DNA of 64,000 nt from an uncultured bacterium (GTDB taxonomy: Bacteria; Babelota; Babeliae; Babelales; Vermiphilaceae). Shown here piece by piece: positions 1 through 55,119 of this stretch. How positions within the stretch are numbered: the stretch's first letter is position 1; every line of letters begins with the position of its first letter. Under the pieces are notes generated by a model. That model made no database searches. It was not told where the DNA came from and was given only the letters and a program-made list of their open reading frames with translations. A program made the translations under genes and the position numbers. The stretch lies in assembly GCA_963702025.1 (NCBI GenBank), contig OY969699.1:288001-352000 (forward strand). Direction: 5' to 3'.

Positions 1-116
1 TATTGTGAGCTTGCCAATGGCTCAATTCCATTTGGCTCAAGCCTTTCTAAACTTTTTTCCATTGCGGTTACAGAAATAATAAAACTGAGTGATAAAAAGA
101 CACATTGTTTATGCAT
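1..116 (-). CDS. N-terminal part of an exported protein, running off the window start
   Basis: Manual translation from ATG at 116: MHKQCVFLSLSFIISVTA-MEKSLERLEPNG..., open to position 1; signal peptide followed by ME as in other genes here. Confidence 0.6.
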   Translation of the reverse strand, partial: MHKQCVFLSLSFIISVTAMEKSLERLEPNGIEPLASSQ

Positions 117-335
117 GGTGCACTTTCGATGCAAAATGGTTGGACATATAAATTAGACATAAATTGATCCAATCATAAAGGAATGGATTACTATCGTCAA
201 ATGTTTTTTAATTATTGGATGAAGCTTTAGATACGAATAGAAAACTAGACTCTGCATAATTCTAGAAACATCAAATCTTCACAATGTTTTTTACAGCTTT
301 AAAAGTAAAAGACAATAGAAGTTTTGCCCAGATAA

Positions 336-893
336 TTACTCCTTAGCGCCATATTTTTGCAGCATTTGGGTTATTTCCTTTTTCTCTTCGGCAGAAAGAT
401 AGTTAAGAACACTCTCCTCATTTATCATGGCCAAAGGGGCTTTGCCAAAAAGGTTTTTGATATTCGGATCAGCTTTTGCTTCCAGAAGTAGTTTAATTAT
501 CTCTTTATACCACTGATTAAATTCATCATTACGACAAGTAATCATACAAGTTGCATGGGTCAATGGAGTTCCGACTTTATCTTGAAGATTTGGGTTTGCA
601 TTATGGGCCAAAAGTGTTTCAACAAGAGGCTTAATGCCGGAAGTAGCAAAAACTGAGAGTGCCGTTTGCCCATATTCATTACGTGCATCAACATTTGCTC
701 CATTTGCAAGTATTATTTTTAACATGTCATTTCGATTATTTATTTCTTGTGGACGAAGAGGTGATAAGTAGGCCGGTCCATCGTTTATTAGTTTGACTAA
801 CAGCGTATCCTGGTCTCCTTTTCCATTCATTGCATCGCATTTAGCAAAAAGATATACCGTTGTAATTAAAAAAAAGAATACAAATTTTCTCAT
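336..893 (-). CDS. Exported ankyrin-repeat protein
   Basis: Hydrophobic N-terminus; ANK motifs GANVDARNEYGQTAL, ANPNLQDKVGTPL, ADPNIKNLFGKAPL. Confidence 0.85.
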   Translation of the reverse strand: MRKFVFFFLITTVYLFAKCDAMNGKGDQDTLLVKLINDGPAYLSPLRPQEINNRNDMLKIILANGANVDARNEYGQTALSVFATSGIKPLVETLLAHNANPNLQDKVGTPLTHATCMITCRNDEFNQWYKEIIKLLLEAKADPNIKNLFGKAPLAMINEESVLNYLSAEEKKEITQMLQKYGAKE

Positions 894-1053
894 AAAAATC
901 CTAATTCAAATGTTAATAGTTGATTAATATATATTATCGTTCAAGGATATATTTTTTTTAAATTAATTACATATATTTCGACACAAAACCGGGCAAATAA
1001 TTATTGTTTCACGAAGTTAGTTTTTGTTAGTGTGAAAAAAAAAGGGGACAAAA

Positions 1054-4933: not shown

Positions 4934-5662
4934 ATGAAATATATCAAATATGCAAGTTTATCGTTATTGGCCCTTATCTGCCTACCAGCCTTTTCTATGG
5001 AAAAAAAGAGACCCCTTGAAACAAAGAGAGATCCTCTTGCTAAGGCTCCTAAAGTAGATGACAATAGTGATGAGAACATTATTAATCTTGTAGAAGATGA
5101 TGAGATCATTGAAGAAGATCCTGAGTTAGCCGCACTCCTTGAACTAGAATTTGCACAACAAATTCCTGATGAGGAACCGGCGCATACCAATGCGCTGCAA
5201 AAAGATGAAACCACTATTGCCGATGATGAATCCACATTAATAGATAAAGAACCCCAAAAGTGCCCGGTTCCCGGTTGCAAATCGGGACCTCAAAAAAATC
5301 TTAAAGAACACATCAAAAACTATCATCATGGCAAAGGGGCAGAGCTGACTACCTGCCATATATGCCAAAAACAAATATTTAGAAGTGATATGAACTTCCA
5401 TCTATTTCATAAGCATGAAGTGGGCTTTCGGACACGTTTAGAAAAAGTAGCATGTGACAAATGCGGAAAAGTAATTTCAAAACAATATCTGGAGAGCCAT
5501 CTAAAGACACTACACGAAATGAGCAAGCAAGATTATTATACCTGCAAATCATGCCCGACTGTGTTTACCGGCTCTTCCTCAATTATAAATCACTTAAAAA
5601 AGAAACATCAGATAAAAGAAAAATTCGTAGATCATTATAAAAAAGAAACACGTGATGTGTAA
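4934..5662 (+). CDS. Exported C2H2-type zinc-finger protein (4 fingers), paralog 1
   Basis: GGAGG RBS before ATG 4934; signal peptide; acidic linker; four Cx2-4C...Hx4H units. Confidence 0.85.
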   Translation: MKYIKYASLSLLALICLPAFSMEKKRPLETKRDPLAKAPKVDDNSDENIINLVEDDEIIEEDPELAALLELEFAQQIPDEEPAHTNALQKDETTIADDESTLIDKEPQKCPVPGCKSGPQKNLKEHIKNYHHGKGAELTTCHICQKQIFRSDMNFHLFHKHEVGFRTRLEKVACDKCGKVISKQYLESHLKTLHEMSKQDYYTCKSCPTVFTGSSSIINHLKKKHQIKEKFVDHYKKETRDV

Positions 5663-5677
5663 TGGAGTGAGGAATAT

Positions 5678-6466
5678 ATGAAATATATCAAATATATAAG
5701 TTTATCGTTATTGGCCCTTATCTGCTTGCCTGCCTTTTCTATGGAAAAGAAAAGACCCCTTGAAACAAAGGAGAATCCTCTTGCTAAGGCTCCTAAAGTA
5801 GATGACAATAGTGATGATATTAATGAAATTGCAGAACAAGAAGATCCCGAATTAGCCGCACTACTTGAACTGGAATTTGCGCAACCAATTACTAATGAGA
5901 AACCGGCACATACCAATGCGCTGCAAAAAGATGAAACCACTATTGCTGATGAAGAAACAGTTGCGGCCGATGATGAATCCACACTAATGGATAAAGAACC
6001 TCAAAAGTGCATATTTCCCGGTTGCAACGCGAAACCTCAAAAAGATCTTTCTAAACACATGTGGAACTATCATGGCAGAGGAGCTCAAGAAATAACGTGC
6101 ACTGAGTGTAATAAAAAAATTTTCCAAAGAATTCTGAAAGACCATACTTGGAGATTTCATGGTGGAGGTGCAAAAGAGACAATTTGCGAGGAATGTAATA
6201 AACAAGTATTAAAAAGAGATCTGCAAAACCATAAAGCACTCCACCCAAAAACAACTTGTGAAATTTGCAAGCAAGAATTTTTATCAGCATGCTTCAACAG
6301 GCATCTAAAAACGCATGCCATGGATAAACAAGATTATTTTATCTGCAAACTATGCACAAAAACTGAGTTTACCAATCGCCATTCAATTCTACGACATTTA
6401 AAAAAAGCACATGAAATAAAAGCAGAATTCAAAAATAACTATAAAAAAGAAACACGCGATGTGTAA
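5678..6466 (+). CDS. Exported C2H2-type zinc-finger protein (5 fingers), paralog 2
   Basis: N-terminus nearly identical to paralog 1, same YKKETRDV end, five finger units. Confidence 0.85.
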   Translation: MKYIKYISLSLLALICLPAFSMEKKRPLETKENPLAKAPKVDDNSDDINEIAEQEDPELAALLELEFAQPITNEKPAHTNALQKDETTIADEETVAADDESTLMDKEPQKCIFPGCNAKPQKDLSKHMWNYHGRGAQEITCTECNKKIFQRILKDHTWRFHGGGAKETICEECNKQVLKRDLQNHKALHPKTTCEICKQEFLSACFNRHLKTHAMDKQDYFICKLCTKTEFTNRHSILRHLKKAHEIKAEFKNNYKKETRDV

Positions 6467-6476
6467 TGGAGTGAAT

Positions 6477-7331
6477 ATGAAATATATTAATTACTTAGCT
6501 TTATCGTTATCGGCCCTTATCTACCTACCAGCCATTTCTATGGAAAAAAAGAGACCCCTTGAAACAAAGGGAAATCTACTCACAAAGGCACCTAAAATAG
6601 TAGATTACAAAAGCGATCAGAACATTATTAATCTCGTGGGAGCAAAAGAAGAAGATGATGAACTAGCGGCCGTACTTAAATATTCGAAACAAATTGCTGA
6701 TGAAGAACCGGCTCATACAAATGCTTTGCAAAATGAACAAGACAATTTCATCAATTTGACAAATGATGATAAGCAAGCAAAAGAAGATCAAGAACTAGCC
6801 GAACTGCTTGAATTTACGCAACAAATTTCCGATGATGAACCAGGGCATACAAATGCTTTGCAAAACGAACAAGACAACATCATCAATTTGACAAATGACG
6901 AAAGCAAAGTAAAAGAAGATGAAGAACTAGCCGAACTGCTTAAATTTACGCAACAAATTGGCGAGGAACCGACGCAGGCAAGTACTCCCCAAAATAATGA
7001 AACCATTGTTGATTTTTATGAAGAAACTTCCGCACCTAATGAAGAATCTGCATTGATAGCTCAAGGAAATTGCACGGATCCGAAGTGCAAAGCTGGGTTG
7101 CAAAAAGATGCTATGCATATCTGGAAATTTCATGGTAATGGAGCACAGGAGATCAGGTGTCCAGAATGTGATGAAACAATGGCAATAAGAGACCTGAGCG
7201 CTCATTCGTTTTCGATTCATAATAAGCGCATAGCAAAAAAGGTCAAATGCACTCACTGCGATAAGAGCATGTTACGAAGCAATATTTTCAAACATAAGGC
7301 GAAATTTCATAATGAAGAAGAACCACAGTAA
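6477..7331 (+). CDS. Exported C2H2-type zinc-finger protein (3 fingers) with triplicated acidic repeat, paralog 3
   Basis: Start by homology at ATG 6477; three ~38 aa repeats (INL..ED.ELA..L...QI..EP); three fingers. Confidence 0.85.
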   Translation: MKYINYLALSLSALIYLPAISMEKKRPLETKGNLLTKAPKIVDYKSDQNIINLVGAKEEDDELAAVLKYSKQIADEEPAHTNALQNEQDNFINLTNDDKQAKEDQELAELLEFTQQISDDEPGHTNALQNEQDNIINLTNDESKVKEDEELAELLKFTQQIGEEPTQASTPQNNETIVDFYEETSAPNEESALIAQGNCTDPKCKAGLQKDAMHIWKFHGNGAQEIRCPECDETMAIRDLSAHSFSIHNKRIAKKVKCTHCDKSMLRSNIFKHKAKFHNEEEPQ

Positions 7332-7404: not shown

Positions 7405-8304
7405 ATGTTCACTATACACCGTTCTTTGATCACACATCTATTATGTTTGCTTGCCGTAAGCACTATCAATTCAATGAGCACTCCTCAAAAACAGGATTTT
7501 CAGGGTGTTCTGTTTCAAAAAGATGACACTGCTACTCAGTCATTAAGCAAGCTCCTGGTTGCATTTAACATTCTTGCAAACACTCAGGACCAAATCGTAA
7601 AAGCAACACAAGAAGCGTGGTTGCGCCCGGCTCATAAAGAACGCTGGGAGTCACCTAACCCCCATGGCAATCGCAAAGAAGAATTAATGCCTTTATTTAA
7701 AGAGATAGGCCTTGTTTGCCAAGTAAAGCCCTCTCAAAAAGAATATGACTTTCTTTTAATCATGGGTGCTCTTCACAAACGGGCACAAATGCGCATAGAT
7801 TATGCGGTTAAACTTTGGAAAGAAGGATATAGATTTAAAAAAATTGTGGTACTTGGCTCAGAGCGGCCACTCGATGCAGAGCAAGAGCCAGCACACGAAT
7901 TTAACACTGATGAAAAACCCCACAATGAATTTGGTATGCTAAAGTATTGTTGCAATAACAGTATGCCGGCGGAAATGCTCACATCAAAAAATATTATCTT
8001 TATCGATACGCCAAATACCATTGATGCGCACGGAAAAATAAAACGCGCGACGACCGGAGACACTATAAATGAATGGCTTAAAACCGAGAATCCAAAACCG
8101 GGCAGCTGCTTAGTTGTTTCTAATCAGCCGCATATTGGATACCAAGAAACAGTGGTCAAAAATCTCGTTCCTCAAACTTTTAGCGTTGAAGGAACCGGCG
8201 ATCAACAATCGCCTGATACTCCGGTTAGTGATATTCTTGACGCATTGGCTCGATGGATTTATAACGAGAATCAATTACGCAAAAAATATGCAACCGCTCA
8301 CTAA
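7405..8304 (+). CDS. Conserved hypothetical exported protein, paralog of the next gene
   Basis: Shares WLRP..ERW, PSQK.Y..LL.MG, RATT.DTI.EWLK, PGSCL..S.QP.IGYQE, LD.LARW.Y with 8288..9136. Confidence 0.75.
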   Translation: MFTIHRSLITHLLCLLAVSTINSMSTPQKQDFQGVLFQKDDTATQSLSKLLVAFNILANTQDQIVKATQEAWLRPAHKERWESPNPHGNRKEELMPLFKEIGLVCQVKPSQKEYDFLLIMGALHKRAQMRIDYAVKLWKEGYRFKKIVVLGSERPLDAEQEPAHEFNTDEKPHNEFGMLKYCCNNSMPAEMLTSKNIIFIDTPNTIDAHGKIKRATTGDTINEWLKTENPKPGSCLVVSNQPHIGYQETVVKNLVPQTFSVEGTGDQQSPDTPVSDILDALARWIYNENQLRKKYATAH

Positions 8305-9157: not shown

Positions 9158-10117
9158 ATGAAGATAGTAATTTTTACTCTTGTCCTATTGGCACCATCGC
9201 CTCTTTATCCCTGTTTTGCCCCGCTCACCTGCGTTAGAAAAATAATAGATCATGGAGCAACGTGTCCGTGCCTCAATCTTGACAATATGCAACGAATTAT
9301 AGATCATCATCATGAAAAAATAATAGATTTTATTAATAAAAAAATTCACACCGAATCCGACATGTTAAAACCTCTACCTATTACAGGATTTCACGCACCA
9401 GCTATTTTTAGTCTCGCCTATAACAATAAAAATAAAGATTTAATAGCACTGCTCCTCAAAAAACGGCCAAAATTAACCAATCTCGTTGAACCGGAAACTG
9501 GCAATACCATTTTTCACACCGCCGCTGAACAAGGTACAAACAAGATTTTGGCAAAATTACTCATCTATGCAAAAGAAAGCAATATACCACTCAATATTCT
9601 TGAAAAAGAAAATAATAATAAACAAACCCCGCTCATGCTTGCCGCCTATTACTCAAGAACGAAATGTGTGAAAGATTTACTCTCCCATGGGGCATCAATC
9701 AATAGTCCTCCCAGCCCGTTACACCGGGCTGCCGTTGGCTTTTTTCGCAGTGAAAATAAACAAAATACAATTATTCTCATGCTCTGCCAAGCAGGAGCAA
9801 ATCTCGATACAAAAAATGAAGATGACTTACAGGCCAATGAACAGCAAAATTGTTCTGCAAATGCTAAAAATTTAATTGCCGAGTATCGCTCTTATCGAGA
9901 CTATAAAAAACTACAAGCACTCGATCTGCCGCCAAAAAAAAGCCGCTTCAGCCGGCTACCATTAGAAATACAGTGTTTGATAAAAGAGTATGTGATTGGT
10001 AAAAAGTATAAACCAGATGAATGGCAAAAACATCGATTTGATTCATTATTGTCATCTGATATTTCATTAAGTGCCAAATTGATCGCAACACTTAATTCAT
10101 TGGAGGAAAAAAAGTAA
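9158..10117 (+). CDS. Exported ankyrin-repeat protein with C-terminal F-box-like motif
   Basis: GNTIFHTAA, QTPLMLAA, SPLHRAA; C-terminal FSRLPLEIQCLIKEYV. Confidence 0.8.
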   Translation: MKIVIFTLVLLAPSPLYPCFAPLTCVRKIIDHGATCPCLNLDNMQRIIDHHHEKIIDFINKKIHTESDMLKPLPITGFHAPAIFSLAYNNKNKDLIALLLKKRPKLTNLVEPETGNTIFHTAAEQGTNKILAKLLIYAKESNIPLNILEKENNNKQTPLMLAAYYSRTKCVKDLLSHGASINSPPSPLHRAAVGFFRSENKQNTIILMLCQAGANLDTKNEDDLQANEQQNCSANAKNLIAEYRSYRDYKKLQALDLPPKKSRFSRLPLEIQCLIKEYVIGKKYKPDEWQKHRFDSLLSSDISLSAKLIATLNSLEEKK

Positions 10118-12741: not shown

Positions 12742-13311
12742 TTATGGCTTGCAAACATGTTTTATTCTTTCTTGCAAAGGAATATAAGGATCATTTTTTT
12801 CATGAAGTTCTAAGGCAAGAGCTTTTTTTATGTCTTCCGGACTACCTGTGAGCCATTGCGTTTTATAGAAATTTCGCATTGCTAAATACCCCTTTATCCG
12901 ATCTAGTATATAGGTATGCGCCAGTTGACCGGGAACGTTAAAATCATCACCAACTACAAACTCGCTATAAGATACGAGCTGCATGTAGAATTTATCCCGC
13001 TGCGTTAATTGGGATGCGTCAGGCAATTTAGCTTTCGCTTCCATAACCTCATTAAATTCGTTCTTTCTGAATACTTCCATTGTTATTTTATCAGCATCAA
13101 TCAATATTCCACGCGCTTTTTCAAGGGATAGCTGATGTTTTTTATCCGGTGTTTCATAATTTTGCACGATGACATTTTTATTAATTTCAATAAATTCTGC
13201 TGCCATATAGCATTCAAGAAAAGAAGTTTTTTCTTCATATTCTTTTTCGGGCACTTCCATACCAATACAATTTATGCTGATTACAACAAAGAGTGAAAAA
13301 AGTTTCTGCAT
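12742..13311 (-). CDS. Hypothetical exported protein
   Basis: Start reassigned to MQKLFSLFVVISINCIG-MEVP (signal peptide followed by ME). Confidence 0.65.
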   Translation of the reverse strand: MQKLFSLFVVISINCIGMEVPEKEYEEKTSFLECYMAAEFIEINKNVIVQNYETPDKKHQLSLEKARGILIDADKITMEVFRKNEFNEVMEAKAKLPDASQLTQRDKFYMQLVSYSEFVVGDDFNVPGQLAHTYILDRIKGYLAMRNFYKTQWLTGSPEDIKKALALELHEKNDPYIPLQERIKHVCKP

Positions 13312-17132: not shown

Positions 17133-18020
17133 ATGTTGAAATTAAATTACGTTTCCTCTCTGGGCGTAGCACTAAGTATTTATTCTTTGAGCTATACAAT
17201 GGAAGTACCGCGGATTAAGGGGCAACGCCAAATGCATCTTCAAGAAATATTGAATAATGATGCAATGAGGAGTTTTGAGAGATTTCCAAACTATAGTTAT
17301 TTTGCTCTTCCTTTAAATATCGATCAAAATGCTCTTTCAAAAATTATACAAAGTAAGAACAAAAAATCTGAGGATATAACTTATTCTACACAAATCGCGC
17401 AAGGCAAAACCGTTAATGATGAGTTAAAAGCACAAACAAATAATCCTGGTGAATTTGTTGCGCCATTTGGCTCAGCAAGCCCTGTAGCTGTGATTACAAT
17501 TTCTACATATGGTATTTGCCGGCACAAAGTTTTCATGCCACTTACTGATTCCGTCGACCTAACTAAAAAAGCTCTTGATACTCAACTTGGTAGAAGATTT
17601 TCCTACATTGAAGATAAGTCAAAAAATGTTAAAGAAGAACTATATGCGCAATATGGCGACCAAGTTAAAAAAAATTTAGAGAGCTTTAAATCAATGCTCT
17701 ACCTCAAAGTGTTACCATCGGTCGCGTATTCAGTGGCCCAACATATTACTAAAGATATAGTTACCGGCGCAGCAGAGTTTCTCAGTTATCCAAAAATACC
17801 TACCTCTCACCCGGTGTCTGCGCAAGAAAAAGAGAAACAAATTACTTCAATCCGGGCCATGAAAGATGTAGCGATTGCTACAAGTAACTTAAAGAGACTT
17901 AAAGCCTTGAAAAAAAATGATAACCCACAAATTAAAATTCTTGAAAAAAAATTTGAAAGTAATTTTTGTCAAACTTTTGAAAAATATATTCACACTCAAT
18001 ACAGTAGCAGGAACATATGA
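17133..18020 (+). CDS. Hypothetical exported protein
   Basis: 295 aa, signal peptide followed by MEVP. Confidence 0.65.
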   Translation: MLKLNYVSSLGVALSIYSLSYTMEVPRIKGQRQMHLQEILNNDAMRSFERFPNYSYFALPLNIDQNALSKIIQSKNKKSEDITYSTQIAQGKTVNDELKAQTNNPGEFVAPFGSASPVAVITISTYGICRHKVFMPLTDSVDLTKKALDTQLGRRFSYIEDKSKNVKEELYAQYGDQVKKNLESFKSMLYLKVLPSVAYSVAQHITKDIVTGAAEFLSYPKIPTSHPVSAQEKEKQITSIRAMKDVAIATSNLKRLKALKKNDNPQIKILEKKFESNFCQTFEKYIHTQYSSRNI

Positions 18021-23341: not shown

Positions 23342-23363
23342 AATCTTTTACCTTTTTTAATTT

Positions 23364-23864: not shown

Positions 23865-23948
23865 AAAAATTCCTTAAAATAATTGAAAAATTTATTCACA
23901 ATGGGGCATAATCCCGAAAATAGTTTTTAATCTTGTCTCAATAAATCC

Positions 23949-23969: not shown

Positions 23970-24010
23970 AGGCCAATGTTAATCTTTGGAATAATGTATC
24001 TCACGCATCG

Positions 24011-24355: not shown

Positions 24356-24364
24356 ATGTTCTCT

Positions 24365-24856
24365 TTATGGAGTCGGCAAGAGAGTTCCAGCAACCTCCAC
24401 GGTCAATGCTGATGCTTCAATAGCCTCATGAACAAGATGCGCTTCTGCAAGAACTTCTGGATGAAAAATGGCCGCAACTGCATAGCCGCCATAACCCACT
24501 GCACGTACTGTCCATCCGGCAATTTTTCCTGTAATCCAACCGCCGCCATTGCCACGAACCTTTGCCACAAGAGCATATTTCCCTTCTTCAAATTTATTGA
24601 TGCGGATATACCCGTTACCAACAAATTCATTCAAGACTTTATGTTGCGAAACATCTCTGAGCAATGGATTAATATTATGCTTTTCAACAAAATGTTTTCC
24701 ATTCTCATCTTCGACGTAGAAATCTCTCTGATTTGAATACAGCTTAAGATCATTTGCCGATGATACAGCGCTCTGCTCTACCAATTCCATTGCATGAACT
24801 AATGATGAAATACTGAATAAAAATAATGATAAAGAAGTGATGTTACGTATCTTCAC
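24365..24856 (-). CDS. Exported precursor: conserved domain + GGG + variable hydrophobic tail (cassette gene A1)
   Basis: GTG start with AGGAAG RBS; 91/106 aa identical to A2 up to LVAKVRGNGGG, then divergent. Confidence 0.85.
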   Translation of the reverse strand: MKIRNITSLSLFLFSISSLVHAMELVEQSAVSSANDLKLYSNQRDFYVEDENGKHFVEKHNINPLLRDVSQHKVLNEFVGNGYIRINKFEEGKYALVAKVRGNGGGWITGKIAGWTVRAVGYGGYAVAAIFHPEVLAEAHLVHEAIEASALTVEVAGTLLPTP

Positions 24857-31025: not shown

Positions 31026-31817
31026 ATGAAAACAAAATATCTTGCAATGCTTTTGCTATTTATTCCCTCATTAAATTTTTGCATGGAAGATGAGGGCTTT
31101 TTCTACCTTATGGAATCTGAATCGGAGGCCAAAGATAGAAAAGAACAACTCATAAATATCATCAATGAACGGCTAGAAAAAAACCTGGATTTGAATGCGA
31201 AAATGGGGTTTCCCTTTGCGAATCAAAAGCCATTACATCGGGCAATACATCATGATCGAACTGGCCAAATAGCCCTAAAATTGCTTAGCGCCGGAGCCGA
31301 TCCAAATGTTAATAATGGCTGGGGGGAAACCCCTTTACATTGGGCATGTAGACCACGTATATCTCTTGAAAATATAAAAATACTGCTAGCATATAACGCA
31401 AACCCAAATATTTATGATACTGCAGGATTATATCTAATTCCCACATCTTATGAAACCCCTCTGCATAATTTGTGTGCAGCATCCCATAGCGCCGATAAAC
31501 AGATTGCTCTCAAACTTTTACTTGCGCACGGCGCAAATTTTTCTTTAGAAAAAAATGGGTATGGCAAAACATGCTTAGAATTATTGTCGGAGACGGATCC
31601 AAATTTGGGCCAAATAGCCAGGCGCATTTACCATCATAAAATTGCTGCCTATATTTTGTTGCTGAGAGGAAAAGAAACAAATGAGTCTTTATTCAGACGC
31701 CTGCCAAAAGATTTGCTCAAATTGATTCTGGGTAGCATTTTCCCCAATTTTCCATGGCCAGGAGAAATTTTGAATTCCGCCAAACTTCTTGCTCTTTTGA
31801 AACCGGAGCCGAAATAG
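31026..31817 (+). CDS. Exported ankyrin-repeat protein with C-terminal F-box-like motif
   Basis: GADPNVNNGWGETPLHWAC, ETPLHNLC; SLFRRLPKDLLKLILGSIFP. Confidence 0.85.
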   Translation: MKTKYLAMLLLFIPSLNFCMEDEGFFYLMESESEAKDRKEQLINIINERLEKNLDLNAKMGFPFANQKPLHRAIHHDRTGQIALKLLSAGADPNVNNGWGETPLHWACRPRISLENIKILLAYNANPNIYDTAGLYLIPTSYETPLHNLCAASHSADKQIALKLLLAHGANFSLEKNGYGKTCLELLSETDPNLGQIARRIYHHKIAAYILLLRGKETNESLFRRLPKDLLKLILGSIFPNFPWPGEILNSAKLLALLKPEPK

Positions 31818-32648
31818 TACATTTGCTGTTTTTTTTGGCACAATGGTGAAAAGCAATTGAGTAAAAAAATTTTAATAATTCTTGTATTTGGAAATAGAGC
31901 ATGAAAACAAAATATCTTGCAACGCTATTACTATTCGTCCCTTTTTTAAATTTTTGTATGGCCGATTGGGATTCGATTTCCCGAATAAGGGCTAAATCAA
32001 GAACTGAACGTCAAGAAGAAGAGAATAAGAAAGCAGTAATAGCCACAATCAATGAACGATTAGAGAAAAAAATAGATCTAAATGAACTCATGCTTGCTTG
32101 GCCGGGCCATAAACTGTTACATCGAGCGGTTCATTATGATCACACTGGTGAATTGGTGCTAAAATTACTCAAAGCTGGGGCATTCCCGGATGTATTCGAT
32201 AACTGTGGACGAACTCCTCTCCATTGGGCATGCAATTCATTATCTCCCGAAAATCTAAAAATACTTCTTGCATATAATGCCAATCCCAATACTGCACTTC
32301 GCAACTCTACCCCTTTGCATAAAATATCCGAATCAACTAATAATTCGAGCTCCAACACACAAATAGCAGTTAAGCTTTTACTTGCTCACGGTGCGCATCC
32401 TTTAAAAAAAAATTGTTATGGAGAAACATGTTTGCAAATATTAGCTAAATATAATCCGAAATTAGAACAAATAACCAGGCGGATTTACCATCATAAAATT
32501 GCTGCCTATATTTTGTTGCTGAGAGGAAAAGAAACAAATGAGTCTTTATTCAGACGCCTGCCAAAAGATTTGCTCAAATTGATTCTGGGTAGCATTTTCC
32601 CCAATTTTCCATGGCCAGGAGAAATTTTGAATTCCGCCAAACTTCTTG
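31626..32648 (+). repeat. 166-bp perfect direct repeat (31626-31791 and 32483-32648)
   Basis: Base-by-base identical from ATTTACCATCAT to AAACTTCTTG. Confidence 0.9.
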
Positions 32649-32692
32649 ATCTTTTGAAATCAGAGCAAAAGCAAATTAAAGGAGATTCATGA
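31901..32692 (+). CDS. Exported ankyrin-repeat protein with C-terminal F-box-like motif, paralog of 31026..31817
   Basis: GRTPLHWAC, STPLHKI; C-terminal module identical to the upstream gene. Confidence 0.85.
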   Translation: MKTKYLATLLLFVPFLNFCMADWDSISRIRAKSRTERQEEENKKAVIATINERLEKKIDLNELMLAWPGHKLLHRAVHYDHTGELVLKLLKAGAFPDVFDNCGRTPLHWACNSLSPENLKILLAYNANPNTALRNSTPLHKISESTNNSSSNTQIAVKLLLAHGAHPLKKNCYGETCLQILAKYNPKLEQITRRIYHHKIAAYILLLRGKETNESLFRRLPKDLLKLILGSIFPNFPWPGEILNSAKLLDLLKSEQKQIKGDS

Positions 32693-33762
32693 AAAAAAAA
32701 TTTGTAGTTTTGGTAGTGTTAATCGTGCTCAACTCAAATACCATAAAAGCATGTTATAGCACACTTGAACATATGTCACGGCGACATACAGCAACCGAGA
32801 CGGCAGAAACACTGAGAGCACTACGCGAAAGCAAAGAAAAAGAAGAGCGTGAAAAAAAAGAAAAAACACAAAAATTGATAAAAACTCTTGAAGATGCACT
32901 GGCAAAAAACGAAAGTGTGAGCCATTTCTGCAATCTAACTGACCCGAAAAATGCTCTCTTTCAACTTGCCCAAAGCGATGAATATATTGAGATAACAAAA
33001 AAAATTTTAAAATCGGGAATAATGCTCAATCCATACACGTTGCAGCCTTATCAAAAATATTCTCCCTTACACGGTGCCGTGCAAAATTTGGCCGTAGAAA
33101 CAACTAAAGAATTACTACGTCATGGCATCCTCCCCAATACCTACGATACTGATGCTGAAACGCCACTCTATAAAATTTGCAATTTTTCCAATGACTCGCC
33201 ACCGCAAATGGTGCAAAAAAGAATAACGATCGCTCGTGTTTTGCTGGCAAATAAAGCTGATCCTAATGCAATAAATGGGCACTTTGGCTATACGCCCAAT
33301 CCAACTGTATTATTTCCATTACTTGCGCCTTGCCTCGATCGTGATCGCTCTATTGAACAATTGGCTATACCCGAGCGCAAATCACTTTTTGATCTCTTAT
33401 TTAAAGCAGGAATAAAAATCCATATCGAGAACTCACAAAACATTACTGCTATGCAAAAAGCGTATGCAGAACTTGGCACGATACCCGAGTTTGTGGAATT
33501 GATAAATTATGTCTTTCAGCGTGAACGTGAAAAAGTATTAAAGATTCTACGCAAACCAGGAAAGGGACCAAAGGCGTATTCACCTTTTAAACTTTTACCT
33601 TTAGAAGTATGCGAGATGATCATTAGTTTTGCATATCCAGAAATAACCCTAAAACCTAAAAATCAGTTCCAATCTTCACTTACAAAGATGGAGTTTCTAA
33701 ACATGTTTAAAGAGGTAAGCACTGAAACCCTGTATCAAAGATCTCTCGGGAAAAATGCGTAA
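32689..33762 (+). CDS. Exported ankyrin-repeat protein with C-terminal F-box-like motif
   Basis: YSPLHGAV, ETPLYKIC, ANKADPN; SPFKLLPLEVCEMIISFAYP. Confidence 0.85.
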   Translation: MKKKFVVLVVLIVLNSNTIKACYSTLEHMSRRHTATETAETLRALRESKEKEEREKKEKTQKLIKTLEDALAKNESVSHFCNLTDPKNALFQLAQSDEYIEITKKILKSGIMLNPYTLQPYQKYSPLHGAVQNLAVETTKELLRHGILPNTYDTDAETPLYKICNFSNDSPPQMVQKRITIARVLLANKADPNAINGHFGYTPNPTVLFPLLAPCLDRDRSIEQLAIPERKSLFDLLFKAGIKIHIENSQNITAMQKAYAELGTIPEFVELINYVFQREREKVLKILRKPGKGPKAYSPFKLLPLEVCEMIISFAYPEITLKPKNQFQSSLTKMEFLNMFKEVSTETLYQRSLGKNA

Positions 33763-35665: not shown

Positions 35666-36313
35666 TTACGCAGCAACCGCAATCACTTGAATTTCATCAC
35701 GACGATTCGGCGCTTGTTGATCCTTATTGCCGGTGCATGGTTTACCATTAACCAGCTCAGGGTAATCAGTTCCACGACCCACAATCTTGATACGATCGGC
35801 AGGAATTCCTTGCGCTACAGCACAATCTTTGAGTGTTTTTGCCCGTTTTTCTGAAAGGAAATAGTTATATGTCTTGGATCCTGCAAAATGATCGGCATTT
35901 CCATTAATCACAAATTCAACTCGAACGCCGGTTTTTTCTTCCTCAGCAAGCAACTGCTTCATGTGAGAAACATTATAATCAACAGACTCTTTTTCAGATG
36001 ATTTTATGCCATATTTATCAAAATCAAAATATACTTTCTTAAGACTTTGTGCCGTCTTGCCTGATCGATTTATCCAGACATACTGATTATCGTCTTCCTC
36101 AATAGGCGCCGCAAAAGAAGGATCATTGAGCGCTAACTCGTCAAGATCTTCTTCAAAAAAACTCTTAACACCATCACCGGCAACCGGAATATCAACATCC
36201 GTTAATATCTCTTTTTTATTAACCGGTCTTTTTTCCGCTTTTTTTGACTTAAAGAACCCGCAACCTGGCATTAAAACAATTACAGATAGTAATGCAATGA
36301 CTTGCTTATTCAT
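35666..36313 (-). CDS. OmpA-family peptidoglycan-associated lipoprotein (Pal-like)
   Basis: Lipobox-like LMPGC, VYFDFDK, GNAD..GSKTYNYFLSEKRA, NRR. Confidence 0.85.
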   Translation of the reverse strand: MNKQVIALLSVIVLMPGCGFFKSKKAEKRPVNKKEILTDVDIPVAGDGVKSFFEEDLDELALNDPSFAAPIEEDDNQYVWINRSGKTAQSLKKVYFDFDKYGIKSSEKESVDYNVSHMKQLLAEEEKTGVRVEFVINGNADHFAGSKTYNYFLSEKRAKTLKDCAVAQGIPADRIKIVGRGTDYPELVNGKPCTGNKDQQAPNRRDEIQVIAVAA

Positions 36314-41140: not shown

Positions 41141-44100
41141 ATGAAATTGCCTACTTTTGCTGCAAAACTATTTGCATCCACACTATTGTTAGTTCTAGCG
41201 ATTCCCGGCATGCAGGGTTACAATGGCCCAGAAACTGCTATCAACCGCGCTAACCAACTCGCTTCTCAACTGCACAACAACGCCTTTGATCAAAAGACTT
41301 TTGATGCCTATGCAACAGAATATGGTAATAAAGCAGCAAATTTAGAAGAATTACGCAAAATTGCCCCTACAATTCCGGTCAAAGGAAAATGCGTTCAAGT
41401 GCCCTCCTTTTTTGCAATCAGCGATAAAGAGGTTCAACAATTTTTGTCAAAAACAAGAGCTATGAATGCTGTACATCCATTCGTTTTAGAAGAAGTTAAA
41501 TATCAACTGGGTATAATGCGGCAATTTGCACATAAAAGTAACCAGGTCCACATTGAAAATGCATTCACCAATTCCACGTTCAAATTTGAGCACCCCAAAC
41601 GCCAAGCAACATTCGAAGAATATGTTAAAAATGCCGTTGGCAACAATAACCTTTTTATGGTTCGCAGTTCCGGCAAAGAGGATACTAAAGAATTTGCCAA
41701 TGCGGGTGGCAATAAAAGTATCGCCGCTGTATGGCCCCATGATCAGGCAATTTCCAAATCAATGGGCCAAGTAGTGGCATCATATTTTAGTGAAAAATCG
41801 ATTTCTCAACGCTTGCTGGCCGGCGATAAGACAGTATTCAATACCGTGTTTATGCCGGCTTTGGTACAAGTGATGATATGCAAAGATCCCATATCGGGCG
41901 TAATCTTTAGTCAAGAGGCCGAGGGCCAAACCCCGGGCGTTACCCATATCGAAGCTGCATACGGACACGGTGAAGGAATTGTTAATGGTTTAGTGCCGGT
42001 GGATAGTTATTATATTGGCCAATCAGGCATCATTCACCCGATAATAAGAAATAAACATGAACGCATTATGCCTTCAGCAGATTTTACTCATCTTGAAAAG
42101 GTACCAAATAGCACCGATAGAGCAACCAAGCCCTGCCTCACGCCGGCCCTTATTAAAGATTTAAAAATTGTTGCTGACACGGTTCAGGCATATTACGGCT
42201 ATCCCGTTGATATTGAATTTGTGATCCAAGATGATGTTATTTATTTGGTGCAAGCGCGCCCGATCGTTGCAAAGCAACAAAAAGCTTCTTATTTATCAGA
42301 TGATTTTGTTAAAAATGCACAAGAAAAAATCACTGTTTTGCCGATAGTCAGTGGGAAGAATGCAGTATGCGCAAATCTGTTTCAAAAATACCCAATTAGG
42401 TCTATCAATGAGCAAACCATCAACCTAGCTCTAGATACATTTCTAAATCTAAATGCTGAGACTAAATCTTCTTTAGAAGCTATTATCGTGGGTCAGATGG
42501 CACCATCAACATCTCATGAAGCAACCACATTTCGCGGCGCCAATAAAGTGGTGGTGTATGTTGCTGAATCTGATAGAAAACGAATTATGCAATGGATCGC
42601 GGGACACGCACCTGTAGCTCTCGATGTTCAAAGAGGATTAATTATCCTCCTTGATCCATCAAAAAAACCAGAGATGTTTCTTCTTGAAGAAAAGCCTGGA
42701 TCATCTGCATTGAGACACGGATGGTTCGCTCACCCGATTCCTGCAAAATGCTCCTTGTTTTCGGAATTTATAGAACTCAATCAAATGCCTGGTTTAAAGC
42801 CGGAAGAATGTTTTAAAGGAAAAAATATATCAACAACTCAGCTATTGAATATGCTTAAAAATGGATCCGCGCAAGAAGCAACCGATGCGCTCAAAACAAT
42901 TTTAGCCCGCGTATCGGGGCAAATTGCACATGCGCAAAAACAAGCTCATGATAAAACAACTATTTTACAATTAAAAAATATCTACGCTCACGCGATCACG
43001 TGTGCACAAGAAACGATGATGGCATTGACCGCATGGGAAACATCGGCTAAGACAGAATCCGATCGGTTAGCACGTTTATACCCAATCACCTTCTTTGAAG
43101 CTGTGATCCGCCAAACACCAATGAAAGATGAATTTCTTAATGGTTATTCTGCAGCGGCACTTTTAAAGATTGATCATGCAGAACAAAAAATTGCCGACAC
43201 AGTAGCAAAAGTAAAACAAGGATTCAGGCCATTTGCGGTGCAACTTGCAAAAGTGGGCAGTTATGCTTTAACTCCGGAATTGGAACAATTGTGGAACGCG
43301 TTCATTACTGAGTTGAGTGAAGAACCATTGGCTACGCGTCTTGATTTTACCCGCATGATCCATAGTTTGGCACAAAACAATATGTTGGCGGAGTGGATAA
43401 ATATCTCATTCGCCCAAGCGATTCAAAAGAAGCCAACTACTTTTTTTGGAAAAACTAAGCAACAGTTAGGAATAACGCACTATGAACCGATTAAAGAATT
43501 ATTACAACAATACAATGAAATTATGCCGCTGCTTATTCAATTGCAATCATGTAAAACAAAACTTGATCCGATAGCCAAAGCGCCGTGGCAAAATCCTGAA
43601 AAATTTATCGGATTAAGAGATCAGTTGAGCAAAGAATGCATACAGCCTCTTGGATCACGACTCTTTTTTAAAACCTATGAAAATACTCCACTATTGGGAA
43701 AAATTGCTATCCAGCACTATTTATATGAGTTAATAAATACCTTCGATGGCATTATAAAAACATTCAAATCAAGCCAAGACTACCCTGATATACATTTGCT
43801 TATTGGCAATTTTAGAGAACTCTTACTCGACTATTGGCAACTTATGGATCATTTAGCCAAAATCCCATGCATTTCTGCAGATATCTATGCCATGCGGGAT
43901 AAAAACACTTTTAAATCGACTAAGGAATATTTCGATGATATTAATAGAAATATAACTAACGCTAATAGAATGAATCCGGAAGAGTTATTACTTCCTTCAC
44001 GCGGAACTCTTTTAAGCTCTTTTAGTGTTGCAGCAGCAATGCTTGGCAGCAAGGCAAATTATACACGACATTGCCCAGAAACGTTGGAAGACATCTTTAC

Positions 44101-46761: not shown

Positions 46762-47538
46762 ATGAAATATAGTATTTTAGGGGTCTGTCAGCTTTTTATT
46801 ATTTATTCCATGGCGATGGAATTGCCTGCAGATAAACTTGTTTCCGAATGGCGAACAATGGAAATTGGTAGCTATAGCGGCACCCCTTTAATTCGTTATT
46901 ATTCTCGAAATAAAAAGGATCGCGAACAAATCAACCTCATTACCTACAACTCATCGCAAGTAACACTTGATCTTTCAAATAAGGGGATCTACAATCTCGC
47001 TAAACTTGAAGTTCTTATAAACAGAATAAATCCGTTTGATGTACTAGGCTTGGATCTTGCGGATAATCATATTAGCTCTTTTTGCATCGAAGAATTGCGC
47101 AAAGTTTTTCCAAATTTAATCACGTTAGATTTACGCAATAATGAAATAAACAAATTGAATGCTCACAATCTTGCGGGCATTCCCATTAATTTTGGGCTCC
47201 TTTTATCAAACAATAAAATCACTACTCTCGATGAAGACATTCTCAAAATATTCTGCCCGATGATTTCCAATGAAAAAATTTTAGTAACCACCTCAACCTT
47301 ACCACTTTGTAAAACATATGAAACTAATGTTAATACTTGGGAAAGATATCAAAAAAATTGCGGTGCAATGGATTTAACAAAAAATCCCATTAATCCAGAA
47401 ACAATAAAAAAAATAAAATTATGGCTGGAAAGTTGTCAGAAATTATCTTGGCACGAAAAAATACTCAAGAAGGCAGTCTCTTTGGTTAAAGAGGAACCAA
47501 AAAAAAATGGTTTTGAAATAATTTTTGATGAAAAGTAG
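46762..47538 (+). CDS. Exported leucine-rich-repeat protein
   Basis: LDLSNKGI, LDLADNHI, LDLRNNEI, LLLSNNKI, MDLTKNPI. Confidence 0.85.
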   Translation: MKYSILGVCQLFIIYSMAMELPADKLVSEWRTMEIGSYSGTPLIRYYSRNKKDREQINLITYNSSQVTLDLSNKGIYNLAKLEVLINRINPFDVLGLDLADNHISSFCIEELRKVFPNLITLDLRNNEINKLNAHNLAGIPINFGLLLSNNKITTLDEDILKIFCPMISNEKILVTTSTLPLCKTYETNVNTWERYQKNCGAMDLTKNPINPETIKKIKLWLESCQKLSWHEKILKKAVSLVKEEPKKNGFEIIFDEK

Positions 47539-51866: not shown

Positions 51867-51963
51867 ATTTGCCACTCCACTCAATGCTAAAGAACAGGAA
51901 CAACTAAAAAAATCGGTTAAAATACTTGCCAAAACGATAAAACAGGTAATACAACTATAACCT

Positions 51964-54771
51964 TTACTCGCTTTTTTTGCTTTCTTTTGGCTCTAATCTT
52001 CCAACCTTGAGCGTAAACATTGCCTCATTGCGCAATACTTTTTTAACCGCTTCTTTTACTTGATCAAGAGTAACGGCAGCTAAGGTTTGTGCTCGGGTAT
52101 CAAAATAATTGACCGGGAAACCCATTCTATCAATGGCTAAAAACATTGACGCAGTACCAAGATTTGTTGCAAAATTATTCACCATAGAACTATTAAGAGC
52201 ACGTTTTGCTTCTAAAAGTTCTTCGGGAGTAATTTCATCAACGGATTTGGTGATAACTTCTTTAATAGCTTTTTCTGCTTCCGCCAAACGATCAAGAGAA
52301 ACGATAGTTTTCACGATCACCATGCCCGGCTGCTCATTGGCACCGGAAATTAAGGTGCCGCCGATGGTGTAGAAAAGGCCTGATTGCTCGCGCAACTGGA
52401 ATAATTTTGAATGCATTGATCCGAGTGTGCCACCGCCAAAAATCTGATCGAATAACAATAACTTATCAAAATCAGGATTTTTACGTTCCACCGATAAACC
52501 CGCAAAACAAAGGACCGCTTGATCACGATTGATAGGGTGAATTTTTTCGCAGGCTTTGATCGGGCTCAATGCCGGGAAATCTATATCTTCTACCTTTGGC
52601 CCTTTCCAGACACCAATAGTTTTTTCTAACATTTTATCGAGTGGATAAGACCCTAGATCTCCAACAATAGCCAATCGGGCATCGGCGGGACTAAAATATT
52701 TCTTATGAAACTCAATCAGATCTTTTTTGGTGATTTTTTTAATAGATTCTTCCGTTCCAAGGATATTTTTGCTGTAAGGATGGCCTTTGTAAATTTCCTG
52801 CGAAACTAAAAGACCCGCAATTTGCTGTGGATTGTCCCAAAAGCTTTTAATCTTTGCAAGAATCTGCTCACGAACTTTTTCAATCTCTTGGTCATCAAAA
52901 CGGGGATGCTCAACAATTTCCAAAAGAAGCTCAAGTCCTTTCTCAAAATCAGTTGCAAGCATACTTAAGGTGATCATCCCTGGAACAACTTGTAAATCCA
53001 TGCCACGAGATTCAAGCTCATCGGCCAACTGGCCGGCAGTATATTTTTTTGTTCCTTCAGAAAGCATTTGTGCGACAAAGTTATAAAGTCCCGGGAGAGA
53101 TTGGCTATCATAAAATGAACGAGCCTTCAGTTCCATGACTAGATCAATTTTGGGAATACTCGAGTTATCATAATAAAGAACCTTTAGCCCATTTTTCAAA
53201 GCTAGGGTCTTATATTTAGGAAAATCAAATTTGGTGGCTTCTTTAATTTTTAATGTTTTAGCATAATGGGGTGGTTCAATTGGGGTTGTTCTTGCCCGTT
53301 TTGCAAGAAACTTTGTGTCATACTCGTCAGAAGCTTTTTGCAATGCTTGCCATTCTTTTTTGTCTTGCTCCGAAAGTGGTAACAATGTTCCCTTGTGCAT
53401 AACCGAATTTTTAAAGTAAGCAGCAAGAAGCTTTTTGATTTCAACTTCAGCTTCTTTTTTTGGCTTATCCATGAAATGGAATGCAAAATTTTCATCGCCG
53501 GTAGCCAAATAGGCTTTGCCAATTTCACGCGCCTGTGTTTCAATGTTTTCCAAGAGTCCGTAATAGTTCATGCGAGCTTGATTGAGCGCTCGCACGTATT
53601 CTAAATCGGTAAGGCCATTTTCTATAATTGAATCGATCTCTTCTTGGATCAAATCATAAATTTTGGGCAAGTCATCACTATTTTTTGGCTCAAAGCTGAT
53701 CAAAAATACACCTGCTTCAAAAAGTAAAAATGGTTGCGCTGCAAAAGATGTTACCAACTGCTCTTCATTAACAAGCTTTTTATATAATCGCGATCCCTTA
53801 CCAAGGCCAAGTATATAGGCAATCACATCCATGAGATGCTCATTTTTAGTTTGTGCACCCGGAACCACAAATGCGGCAACGGCCAACGGTTTTTGCACAT
53901 CACGATACAAAGTTACTTGGTGGGAAATTATATCTTTATTAAAATAAAACTGATCTTTTTTATACTGTTTATTGGCAGGAATTTTCTCAAAATATTTTTT
54001 TGCCAGATCAAATGCTTCTTTTACTTCTACGTCTCCTACAATAACCAGAGTGGCATTGTTGGGCCAGTAATGTTTTTTATAAAACTCTCGTAACCTATTG
54101 GCATGGACATCAAATAAATCCTGCTTAAACCCAATTATCGGATAATGGTATGGATGGTCAGGAAAAATTGCTGCCATCAGATCCATAATTAAGCTTTGAG
54201 AATAGTTATCTTTATACATTTTTAATTCTTGAATCACCGCTTTCATCTCAGAATTAAGATGGTCATCTTTAAAGCCAACATTTTGCATACAGTCAGCTAA
54301 AATTGGCAACCCTTCATGCCAATTTTGCACCGGCAAATTAAATAAATAGCCGGTATAATCCCAGGAAGTGAACGCATTGGTTGATCCGGAAAGCATATGC
54401 GTGATGACACTAATATCTGATTCTGAAAGGTATGGTAGCTTGTCAGGCTTAGAAACTGTCCCTTTGAAGATCATGTGCTCAATCAAATGCGCGTCCCCCT
54501 TTTCGCCTGTTTTTTCATCTTTGGAACCAACGTTATACCATATTTGCATAGAAACTTTGGGCAACGTATGAACCACGCGGACCAAAACGGTCATACCATT
54601 ACTCAAGATTAATTTTTGTACAAAGGGATTATTTTCTTTTTGGTCGTGTAGCATTTCTTTTTCCTGATCAAAATCATCCAAGATAGGCTCTGTGCATTCT
54701 TCTGCAAGAAGCGTATGTGTTATAAAACAAACAAACAAAGTAATACAAAGATATATTTGCTTTTTTTCCAT
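51964..54771 (-). CDS. M16 (insulinase/PqqL-like) zinc peptidase, exported
   Basis: Signal peptide; VGSKDE..G.AHLIEHMIFKGT; two-half architecture; LREQSGLFY. Confidence 0.92.
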   Translation of the reverse strand: MEKKQIYLCITLFVCFITHTLLAEECTEPILDDFDQEKEMLHDQKENNPFVQKLILSNGMTVLVRVVHTLPKVSMQIWYNVGSKDEKTGEKGDAHLIEHMIFKGTVSKPDKLPYLSESDISVITHMLSGSTNAFTSWDYTGYLFNLPVQNWHEGLPILADCMQNVGFKDDHLNSEMKAVIQELKMYKDNYSQSLIMDLMAAIFPDHPYHYPIIGFKQDLFDVHANRLREFYKKHYWPNNATLVIVGDVEVKEAFDLAKKYFEKIPANKQYKKDQFYFNKDIISHQVTLYRDVQKPLAVAAFVVPGAQTKNEHLMDVIAYILGLGKGSRLYKKLVNEEQLVTSFAAQPFLLFEAGVFLISFEPKNSDDLPKIYDLIQEEIDSIIENGLTDLEYVRALNQARMNYYGLLENIETQAREIGKAYLATGDENFAFHFMDKPKKEAEVEIKKLLAAYFKNSVMHKGTLLPLSEQDKKEWQALQKASDEYDTKFLAKRARTTPIEPPHYAKTLKIKEATKFDFPKYKTLALKNGLKVLYYDNSSIPKIDLVMELKARSFYDSQSLPGLYNFVAQMLSEGTKKYTAGQLADELESRGMDLQVVPGMITLSMLATDFEKGLELLLEIVEHPRFDDQEIEKVREQILAKIKSFWDNPQQIAGLLVSQEIYKGHPYSKNILGTEESIKKITKKDLIEFHKKYFSPADARLAIVGDLGSYPLDKMLEKTIGVWKGPKVEDIDFPALSPIKACEKIHPINRDQAVLCFAGLSVERKNPDFDKLLLFDQIFGGGTLGSMHSKLFQLREQSGLFYTIGGTLISGANEQPGMVIVKTIVSLDRLAEAEKAIKEVITKSVDEITPEELLEAKRALNSSMVNNFATNLGTASMFLAIDRMGFPVNYFDTRAQTLAAVTLDQVKEAVKKVLRNEAMFTLKVGRLEPKESKKSE

Positions 54772-54882
54772 TAGTTTCCTTTTTCTTTACTTGCAAAAGT
54801 GTACCATTTTTTCAATCCTTTGCTCAATAACTCTCTCATTTTGTATATTGAAGAAAATATGGTAGTAAAAAAGGAGGTAAGA

Positions 54883-55119
54883 ATGGCTCAAGGGTTATAT
54901 CTCACTATTTTCACCATGCTTATCATGGCAGGGCAAATAAATGGGATGAATGATAAAGTAAAGAAACCTAAAAAAACTCCCCCATCACCGCCCGGCTGCA
55001 TCCGCCAAAATTCAGACGAACTACAAAAGGTAATTCTTGAAATTGCCGTACAACAAGGAAACACTGAATTAGCTAAAACATTACAAAAGATTACCGCTCA
55101 GCTGGGTGATAAAAGCTAA
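54883..55119 (+). CDS. Small hypothetical exported protein
   Basis: AAGGAGGT RBS before ATG 54883; signal peptide then MNDK. Confidence 0.6.
   Translation: MAQGLYLTIFTMLIMAGQINGMNDKVKKPKKTPPSPPGCIRQNSDELQKVILEIAVQQGNTELAKTLQKITAQLGDKS

Follow-up and report, generated by a model that had tools for sequence, protein, structure and literature searches.

Signal Peptides Followed by Methionine in the Window

The stretch of DNA analysed here (the window; 64,000 nucleotides, positions 288,001 to 352,000 of contig OY969699.1, GenBank assembly GCA_963702025.1) belongs to an uncultured bacterium of the family Vermiphilaceae, in the phylum Babelota. Several proteins encoded in it combine an N-terminal signal peptide with a Met located immediately after the predicted cleavage site (position +1), which is in most cases followed by Glu. 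This Met(-Glu) end, referred to here as the tag, represents a real, genome-wide rule, which is under selection and selective for cargo.

The 16 signal peptide/Met junctions listed in the original prediction, which was made from the letters alone, have all been found, with the same coordinates and residues, and two further sites have been added (30097+ and 41141+). Coordinates given below comprise the signal peptide and the first two residues of the mature protein, and a slash marks the predicted cut. On the forward strand, Met-Glu is found at 4934..5002 (AFS/ME, Met codon at 4997), in a protein with weak C2H2 zinc-finger matches; at 5678..5746 (Met codon 5741), in its paralog; at 6477..6545 (AIS/ME, 6540), in a protein of the same leader family as 4934; at 17133..17204 (SYT/ME, 17199); at 28465..28521 (VFS/ME, 28516), 29330..29383 (SHA/ME, 29378) and 31026..31088 (NFC/ME, 31083), all three in ankyrin proteins; and at 46762..46821 (SMA/ME, 46816), in a protein with weak leucine-rich repeat (LRR) matches. 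On the reverse strand, it is found at 57..116 (VTA/ME, Met codon 62-60), in a gene that continues past the window edge; at 13255..13311 (CIG/ME, 13260); and, in two paralogs whose signal peptides begin with GTG, at 24785..24856 (VHA/ME, 24790) and 28019..28090 (Met codon 28024). The Met is followed by other residues at 825..893 on the reverse strand (CDA/MN, Met codon 830; an ankyrin protein) and, on the forward strand, at 7405..7479 (INS/MS, 7474; site posterior 0.51), 30097..30156 (SDT/MT, 30151; an ankyrin protein), 31901..31963 (NFC/MA, 31958; an ankyrin protein paralogous to that at 31026), 41141..41215 (IPG/MQ, 41210; a 1144-aa protein with a PPDK_N ATP-grasp domain) and 54883..54951 (ING/MN, 54946; a 78-aa protein). 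The proteins at 6477, 7405, 13311, 17133, 24856 and 54883 have no Pfam match.

Two predictors of the cleavage site were used, neither of which scores any residue from +1 onwards. The hand-weighted one, which considers only the hydrophobic (h-) region and positions -3/-1, places Met at +1 at 11 of the 16 sites, and a position matrix covering -8 to -1, trained on the Met-Glu sites of this same genome, does so at 15 of the 16; the site missed by the matrix (893-) is the only one missed by both. Judging from the N-terminal sequences, the 16 sites represent no more than 12 independent families, given the paralogy within the groups 4934/5678/6477, 24856/28090 and 31026/31901. Of the families named in the original prediction (ankyrin, LRR, zinc finger and toxin-like), ankyrin was recognized in 5 of the 15 proteins scanned; the zinc-finger (two) and LRR (one) matches lie below the Pfam cut-offs, no toxin family appeared (0/15), and 7 of the 15 have no Pfam family at all.

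As had also been claimed, Met is missing at the cut of an OmpA/Pal-like lipoprotein (35666..36313, reverse strand), an exported M16 peptidase (51964..54771, reverse strand), whose predicted +1 residue is Glu, and an exported C11 peptidase (59678..61003, forward strand). The tag is not universal among putative effectors. Two ankyrin proteins of the window with a signal peptide (9158..10117 and 32689..33762, both on the forward strand) exhibit a Cys near the cut and no Met.

Frequency and Residue Pattern of the Tag across the Genome

The genome consists of a single contig of 1.596 Mb with 39% GC and 1586 genes (according to our own gene caller), and is 95% complete. It holds three ATP/ADP translocase genes, the named homologs of which belong to Babeliaceae, Babeliales and Dependentiae. 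With the hand-weighted predictor, Met occupies +1 in 174 of 641 predicted soluble non-lipoprotein signal peptides, versus a Met content of 1.85% in the proteome. The matrix, which was trained on 171 Met-Glu sites and recovers 127 of them in 5-fold cross-validation, raises this number to 236/641 (background 1.7%; p about 1e-239). A looser rule, which accepts any Met of the cleavage zone that is preceded by a small residue, yields 303/641, or 331/665 when Pro is allowed and lipobox-like calls are included. The 303 tagged proteins fall into 187 families, with Glu following the Met in 89 of the 187 representatives; one linked cluster accounts for 73 of the 303.

The pattern extends beyond the Met. 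Glu appears at +2 in 138 of the 236 sites (7.1-fold enrichment), Lys is enriched 3-fold at +3 and Pro 4.8-fold at +4, and none of these enrichments is observed in the 405 sites without Met. The most frequent four-residue ends are MEKP (21 of the 303), MELP (14) and MEMP (12). When +2 residues are grouped into classes, Glu/Asp/Asn/Gln are found at 180 of the 236 sites (76%, expected 24%), hydrophobic residues (Leu/Ile/Phe/Tyr/Trp) at 8 (3%, expected 22%) and small residues of the aminopeptidase type at 31 (13%, expected 37%). Signal-peptide proteins without Met show no bias towards stabilizing residues at +1 (59/150, 0.39; control 0.39).

At the 171 Met-Glu sites, position -1 is occupied by Ala (83), Gly (42), Ser (31), Thr (6), Pro (5) or Cys (4), a distribution imposed by the anchor rule, and -3 chiefly by Leu/Ala/Ser/Ile/Val/Thr, the mean position being 20. 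Independently of that rule, the first Met of the zone is preceded by Ala/Gly/Ser in 265 of the 349 proteins with any Met in it. With their basic n-region, hydrophobic h-region and small residues at -3/-1, the tagged proteins have the features of Sec and signal peptidase I substrates, and would be exported and cut as such. The possibility that the Met forms part of a lipobox for signal peptidase II was rejected, as +1 is Met and not Cys, and -2 is often Phe, Leu, His or Gln.

Cargo of the Tagged Proteins

All 330 signal-peptide proteins encoded in 40 blocks (about half of the genome) were scanned with Pfam, long proteins being cut to 520 residues. Cargo classes were assigned by the authors from the Pfam names. 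One pilin was excluded as a false call, and the majority of the proteins belong to no family. Met is present in 51 of the 57 proteins with eukaryote-like domains (ankyrin, LRR, C2H2, RING, SET, Skp1) and absent from 6, whereas it is found in only 2 of the 20 with envelope functions (amidases, M23 peptidases, outer-membrane protein barrels, BamA, penicillin-binding proteins (PBP), substrate-binding proteins (SBP), SpoIID, DUF5122 and others) and absent from 18 (p=1e-10). The split is also seen with the blind matrix alone (38/56 versus 1/16). The original prediction depended on the cuts falling directly before the Met, as they are predicted to do, and on +1 Met not being equally common in housekeeping exported proteins, and it has withstood both comparisons.

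Ankyrin genes follow the same trend: among 87 mapped from hand-picked positions within the 150 listed of 163 matches, 73 have a signal call, and 62 of those 73 carry Met. At least 8 of the 14 without a signal call show a signal peptide plus Met by eye.

None of the 10 exported glycosyl-, methyl- and nucleotide-sugar enzymes is tagged. Nucleotide-sugar enzymes and glycosyl-, methyl- and sulfotransferases with a signal peptide and no tag are encoded between 1.51 and 1.57 Mb of this genome (G000; loci L061, L062 and L064), suggesting that these enzymes go elsewhere than the ankyrin-type cargo. Two tagged proteins (L032:15768-16751 and L059:13800-15158, both on the reverse strand) hold an N-terminal Skp1_POZ-like domain, one together with LRR and the other with an M48 peptidase domain, and possibly mimic adaptors of host ubiquitin ligases. 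Signal-peptide proteins with a SET domain are encoded at G000:C1:936048 and 1095876; SET genes are found in 22 of 61 Babelota genomes, including all the sampled genomes of two families, and with a patchy distribution elsewhere.

Distribution in Babelota and Other Bacteria

The tag was also sought in 20-280 kb from each of 21 genome groups, covering all 12 families of Babelota, and in one metagenome locus, a small sample in which relatives are not independent. The blind matrix placed Met at +1 in 48 of 432 signal peptides (background about 2.2%), distributed over 14 of the 22 samples; the other 8 samples had no such site, so that a phylum-wide rule is not supported. The commonest +2 residue at these 48 sites is Asp (11), with 4 each of Glu, Gln, Gly, Phe and Lys. 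In two of these genomes, G040 and G041, blind Met was found in only 1/11 and 3/30 ankyrin proteins, which tend to start with Ser/Ala, often with Pro at -1. The +1 residue is a stabilizing one in 31 of the 42 eukaryote-like proteins of both genomes, which is suggestive of a more general rule for stabilizing residues, with Ala/Ser used in other lineages. A tandem ankyrin array of G041 (L257, L017) encodes signal peptides whose last residue is often Pro, with Ala-Ala or Met-Ala after it. Throughout Babelota, Pro occupies -1 with unusual frequency.

Genomes outside Babelota were reached by means of the translocase motif. In Paracaedibacter symbiosus, Met occupies +1 in 5 of 28 blind predictions (background 2%, p=2e-4), a number that rises to 7 under the looser rule, in what is a small sample. 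Its tagged proteins are one LRR protein, one PLD-like protein and unknown proteins, and its untagged ones PBP5, LolA, a porin, OmpA, an SBP, and S8 and M15 peptidases. Gene transfer between both bacteria was discarded, since none of the 7 tagged proteins matches this genome by BLAST. Other translocase-bearing Alphaproteobacteria, together with one re-scored Paracaedibacter block, gave 6/72, and the controls 0/14 (Rickettsiaceae/Wolbachia), 0/10 (Chlamydiae) and 1/14 (Verrucomicrobia); Escherichia coli, with 1 signal peptide in 50 kb, was too small a control for use.

Predicted Export Route

The genome encodes one signal peptidase I, which scores above the TIGR02227 cut-off, and the existence of a second, dedicated signal peptidase was rejected, as only this one was found. 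It also encodes BamA, two tandem GspD-like secretins, GspE and a second GspE-like ATPase. GspE scores 647.6 (cut-off 630.25); for the two secretins the best match is GspD, along its whole profile, with scores (270 and 287) under the cut-off of 351. The secretins, of about 850 aa, are encoded outside the window (G000:C1:365535-373997; loci L069 and L070) together with a PilM/GspL-like gene and a GspC-like gene, the latter recognized only by its position and membrane anchor. In this 95% complete genome, no match was found to TolC, to the export gate of type III secretion systems and flagella, or to VirB4, in a search that did not extend to type VI or autotransporter routes.

Each of 61 Babelota genomes examined (61 of 61) shows two or more secretin matches, and the available text of PMC4776705 reports two gspD copies in all the TM6 genomes then known. 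The GspD/GspE set may serve a pilus (according to the same text of PMC4776705). In five alphaproteobacterial genomes, Paracaedibacter included, GspD is matched only over its C-terminal half.

Host N-Degron Evasion as the Favoured Explanation

The explanation favoured here, to which we give about an even chance, is that Met(-Glu) is selectively kept at the predicted cut because it yields an N-terminus that is ignored by the N-degron (N-end rule) pathway of the host. Translation starts at the upstream start codon, as shown by the ribosome-binding sites. The protein would then be exported by Sec and cut before the Met by the lone signal peptidase I, as predicted from the -3/-1 pattern, and, judging from gene content, would cross the outer membrane most likely through the type II secretion system, or otherwise in vesicles or after lysis. 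Sec export deprives a protein of its initiator Met, and without the tag its first residue would be Asp, Glu, Gln, Lys, Leu, Phe or Tyr, all of them N-degrons. According to the N-degron rules, a Met start whose second residue is acidic or polar would be neither a Met-hydrophobic degron nor a substrate of the methionine aminopeptidase, and may be acetylated. Envelope proteins show no bias towards Met, presumably because they would never meet the host proteasome.

The classes into which the +2 residues were grouped, including the two avoided ones (hydrophobic and small), are those named in the consulted part of PMC6063864. Host-side stabilization is favoured because the tag avoids precisely these residues, while untagged proteins show no such avoidance, and the mimicry of host proteins is further strengthened by the combination of this avoidance with the appearance of the tag in a second phylum. 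It is plausible, although we lean slightly against it, that a eukaryote-style Met-acidic end arose independently in Babelota and in Paracaedibacter-type Alphaproteobacteria, and is read either by the acetylation/N-degron machinery of the host or by the type II system.

The tag classes match those of the eukaryotic starts that retain their Met and are not degrons (Met-Glu/Asp/Asn/Gln), as described in that same part of PMC6063864. In contrast, those starts arise at initiation and are mostly acetylated during translation, whereas the ends of the tagged proteins would arise by bacterial proteolysis. The claim that the tag makes NatB substrates has fared unevenly. Residues of the NatB class (Asp/Glu/Asn/Gln after Met) occur at 180 of the 236 sites, but nearly all of them through Glu; Gln is slightly enriched, and Asp (1.2-fold) and Asn (0.5-fold) are not. 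In other Babelota this class is found at 21 of 48 Met sites, and Met-Phe, Met-Val and Met-Ile starts are also present, which further weakens the claim. Acetylation by NatB is thus weakly supported, and the access of a finished protein to NatB would be uncertain.

Several points weigh against the evasion of N-degrons. Signal peptides were called with our own heuristic and not with SignalP, the 641 include false calls, and cleavage, delivery to the host cytosol and acetylation are predictions from sequence. The cargo split has exceptions on both sides: five ankyrin proteins, one RING protein and one histone-deacetylase protein have no Met, and an M15 dipeptidase and an S49 peptidase carry it. 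There is no enrichment of Asp or Asn at +2, and those of Lys at +3 and Pro at +4 are not predicted by the N-degron rules, which in addition derive from yeast, animals and plants. In other Babelota, 8 of the 48 Met sites are Met-hydrophobic. The tendency to Ala/Ser in G040 and G041 does not differ significantly from that of the envelope proteins of the same genomes (31/42 versus 9/19, p=0.08), and these residues are common after ordinary signal peptides, such as those of chagasin homologs. Lastly, the alphaproteobacterial rate (11/100) does not differ significantly from that of the small control formed by Rickettsiaceae and Chlamydiae (0/24; p=0.12), nor is the excess in Paracaedibacter significant against the same controls (p=0.05 to 0.12).

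Alternative Explanations

The alternative that survives best, which is possible but rather unlikely, is that the Met-Glu-(Lys/Leu)-Pro end acts as a periplasmic sorting tag for a second secretion step, likely through the type II system, which would separate secreted proteins from resident envelope ones. The export genes described above fit this idea, both for what is present (tandem secretins, GspE over its cut-off, secretin pairs in all 61 Babelota genomes) and for the failure to match TolC, the type III/flagellar gate and VirB4. The four-residue consensus exceeds what the avoidance of N-degrons needs, the preference for Glu alone and the Met-hydrophobic starts of other Babelota are also in line with it, and the cargo split is explained equally well, including the chagasin inhibitors, which possibly act in the lumen of the vacuole. 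However, known type II systems recognize folded cargo and are not known to read a linear end, Met is missing from most ankyrin proteins of Babelota that share the secretin pair (G040 and G041), Paracaedibacter is tagged with a GspD match of only half length, and the second residue differs by lineage. Sorting and host-side stabilization are not mutually exclusive.

Two eukaryotic systems can be cited as analogies. The mature end of proteins exported through the PEXEL motif of Plasmodium is xE/Q/D and is acetylated, and its acidic or Gln second residue resembles that of the tag. In that intracellular parasite, as described in the text seen of PMC10653839, export takes place in two steps and is decided by the processed N-terminus, which marks host-bound proteins and provides a precedent for the sorting tag. 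Unlike the tag, PEXEL operates in a eukaryotic endoplasmic reticulum (ER), with a dedicated protease and translocon and a free first residue, whereas an ordinary signal peptidase I is predicted here, and no homology is claimed. In complex plastids, a single +1 Phe directs some of the proteins with a signal peptide to a second translocation step (bioRxiv 10.64898/2026.03.27.714854, in the portion available), although this concerns algal traffic from the ER to the plastid and involves an aromatic residue plus a transit peptide.

It is improbable that the Met protects or marks the proteins only on the bacterial side, either by resisting periplasmic or vacuolar aminopeptidases or by speeding the cut by the signal peptidase, with no role in host degrons. 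Such a function would resemble the closest known precedent for the tag, the Q-rule of Bacteroidetes, the modifying enzyme of which is glutaminyl cyclase. In this rule, according to the sections consulted of PMC5837995 and PMC10653852, a lineage-specific residue right after the signal peptidase I cut is shared by hundreds of unrelated proteins and is linked to the stability of the mature protein, a fixed +1 Gln being what stabilizes exported proteins (PMC10653852). The single signal peptidase I of the genome would be compatible with this function, and Pro at +4 could stall exopeptidases. In contrast, a bacterial-side role should extend to the envelope proteins, 18 of 20 of which have no Met, and no modifying enzyme has been identified, although no search for a Met-modifying enzyme was made. 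Moreover, the tag does not belong to the Q-rule by residue, since +1 is Gln in only 38 of the 641 signal peptides versus Met in 236, nor by cargo, because it picks host-interaction proteins, while the Q-rule, in the same sections of those papers, spans periplasmic, membrane and surface proteins. It also differs in the bias at +2 and +4, in its patchy presence in the phylum and in having no known modifying enzyme.

Even less probable is that the Met is a relic start codon, left when signal peptides were fused upstream of genes and spread by duplication, with no selection on the Met itself. Two observations are in favour of this origin. One is the linked cluster that holds 73 of the 303 tagged proteins. 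The other is a tagged HD-domain hydrolase (L030:8202-8945, forward strand), whose cytoplasmic homologs, some labelled Bacteroidota/Salinibacter, begin near the tag Met. This is likely a cytoplasmic enzyme that was acquired and made exported, which would fit a prepended signal, but its three closest relatives all retain Met-Glu, with a variable linker behind it. Relic starts may well represent one mutational source of the tag. However, as the sole cause they are largely refuted. The tagged proteins belong to 187 families, with Glu at +2 in 89 representatives, and the +2 composition (Glu 52%, Lys 3%) departs from the one seen at the true starts of the genome (Lys 18%, Glu 6%). Among the best paralog pairs with less than 40% identity, 78/100 retain the +1 Met, about four times the rate for aligned internal Met (68/368), while the signal peptides of the same pairs are barely more similar than random ones (0.17 versus 0.13). 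In the chagasin family, 63 of 68 homologs bear a signal peptide, Met-Glu is confined to the query and the relative closest to it, and the next three have Thr-Glu/Gln, indicating that the family was already exported when it gained the Met. A DNA cassette or recombination site was likewise rejected. The similarity of the paralog signal peptides is near random, the Glu codons of the tag follow genome usage (116:38 versus 3:1) and no synonymous-site signature was detected; C precedes the tag ATG slightly more often than expected (86 versus 62), but so it does with internal ATGs (452 versus 384).

Finally, it can hardly be correct that the tag ATG is a second translation start yielding a cytoplasmic form. 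Such a start would indeed show up as an in-frame ATG in a constant position, and the original prediction had proposed a search for ribosome-binding sites to test it. However, Shine-Dalgarno pairing with the 16S end of this organism at -3.5 kcal/mol or better precedes 85% of the 303 first starts but just 6% of the tag ATGs, a lower share than for internal ATGs (23% of 1000) and close to that of a recoded control (9%), and the bases upstream of the tag ATG encode the -3/-1 pattern.

Significance

Babelota are parasites of protists with proteomes rich in signal peptides (PMC6561590, in the text available), and in Chromulinavorax signal peptides have been reported on 44% of the proteins and 78% of the ankyrin proteins (in the main texts of PMC6561590 and PMC4776705). 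The word methionine is absent from those two main texts, no +1 rule appears in the parts of them that were consulted, and the portions seen of PMC8163844 and PMC10165199 hold nothing on the tag. A full-text literature search, with supplements and most subscription papers outside its scope, found no published +1 Met rule. Phytoplasmas are another group in which signal peptides may end just before a Met.

The tag bears on the question of how Babelota, with neither type III nor type IV systems, deliver their numerous eukaryote-like proteins, those with ankyrin repeats among them. It nominates about 240-330 proteins of this genome, mostly without a family, as candidate host-directed proteins, and makes testable both the shaping of Sec-exported effectors by host N-degrons and the reading of a linear N-terminal tag by a type II system. 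If the independent evolution and the reading of the mature end were true, this would be the first linear cargo signal of a type II system, or else one read by host machinery, and the effector set of a genetically intractable phylum could be read from two residues. In practical terms, gene finders may take the tag ATG as the start codon, with the loss of the signal peptide.

Other Features of the Window

Four signal-peptide proteins of the window, encoded at 9158+, 32689+, 50621+ and 18017+, exhibit a Cys at or beside the predicted cut without a canonical lipobox, two of them being the untagged ankyrin proteins mentioned above. They are possibly atypical lipoproteins or a second N-terminal class. 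In the three tandem paralogs at 4934-7331 (forward strand), two of which have the weak C2H2 matches, the mature Met-Glu end is followed by a basic run (KKRP) resembling a nuclear localization signal, which makes them candidate nuclear effectors. The Met-Gln protein encoded at 41141-44575 (forward strand) is possibly an exported kinase-type enzyme; a search of viral contigs with it found no viral relative. Querying the ESM Atlas with one tagged N-terminus returned nothing, and a scan with Rfam only one tRNA.

A three-gene block is duplicated at 22373-28090 (23364/26631, 24011/27258 and 24365/27596), around a DDE transposase and a fragment of an AAA-ATPase. At 40398-41025 (forward strand), a gene for a MazE-like antitoxin is followed by a short Fic/Doc gene, both of which form a probable toxin-antitoxin pair.

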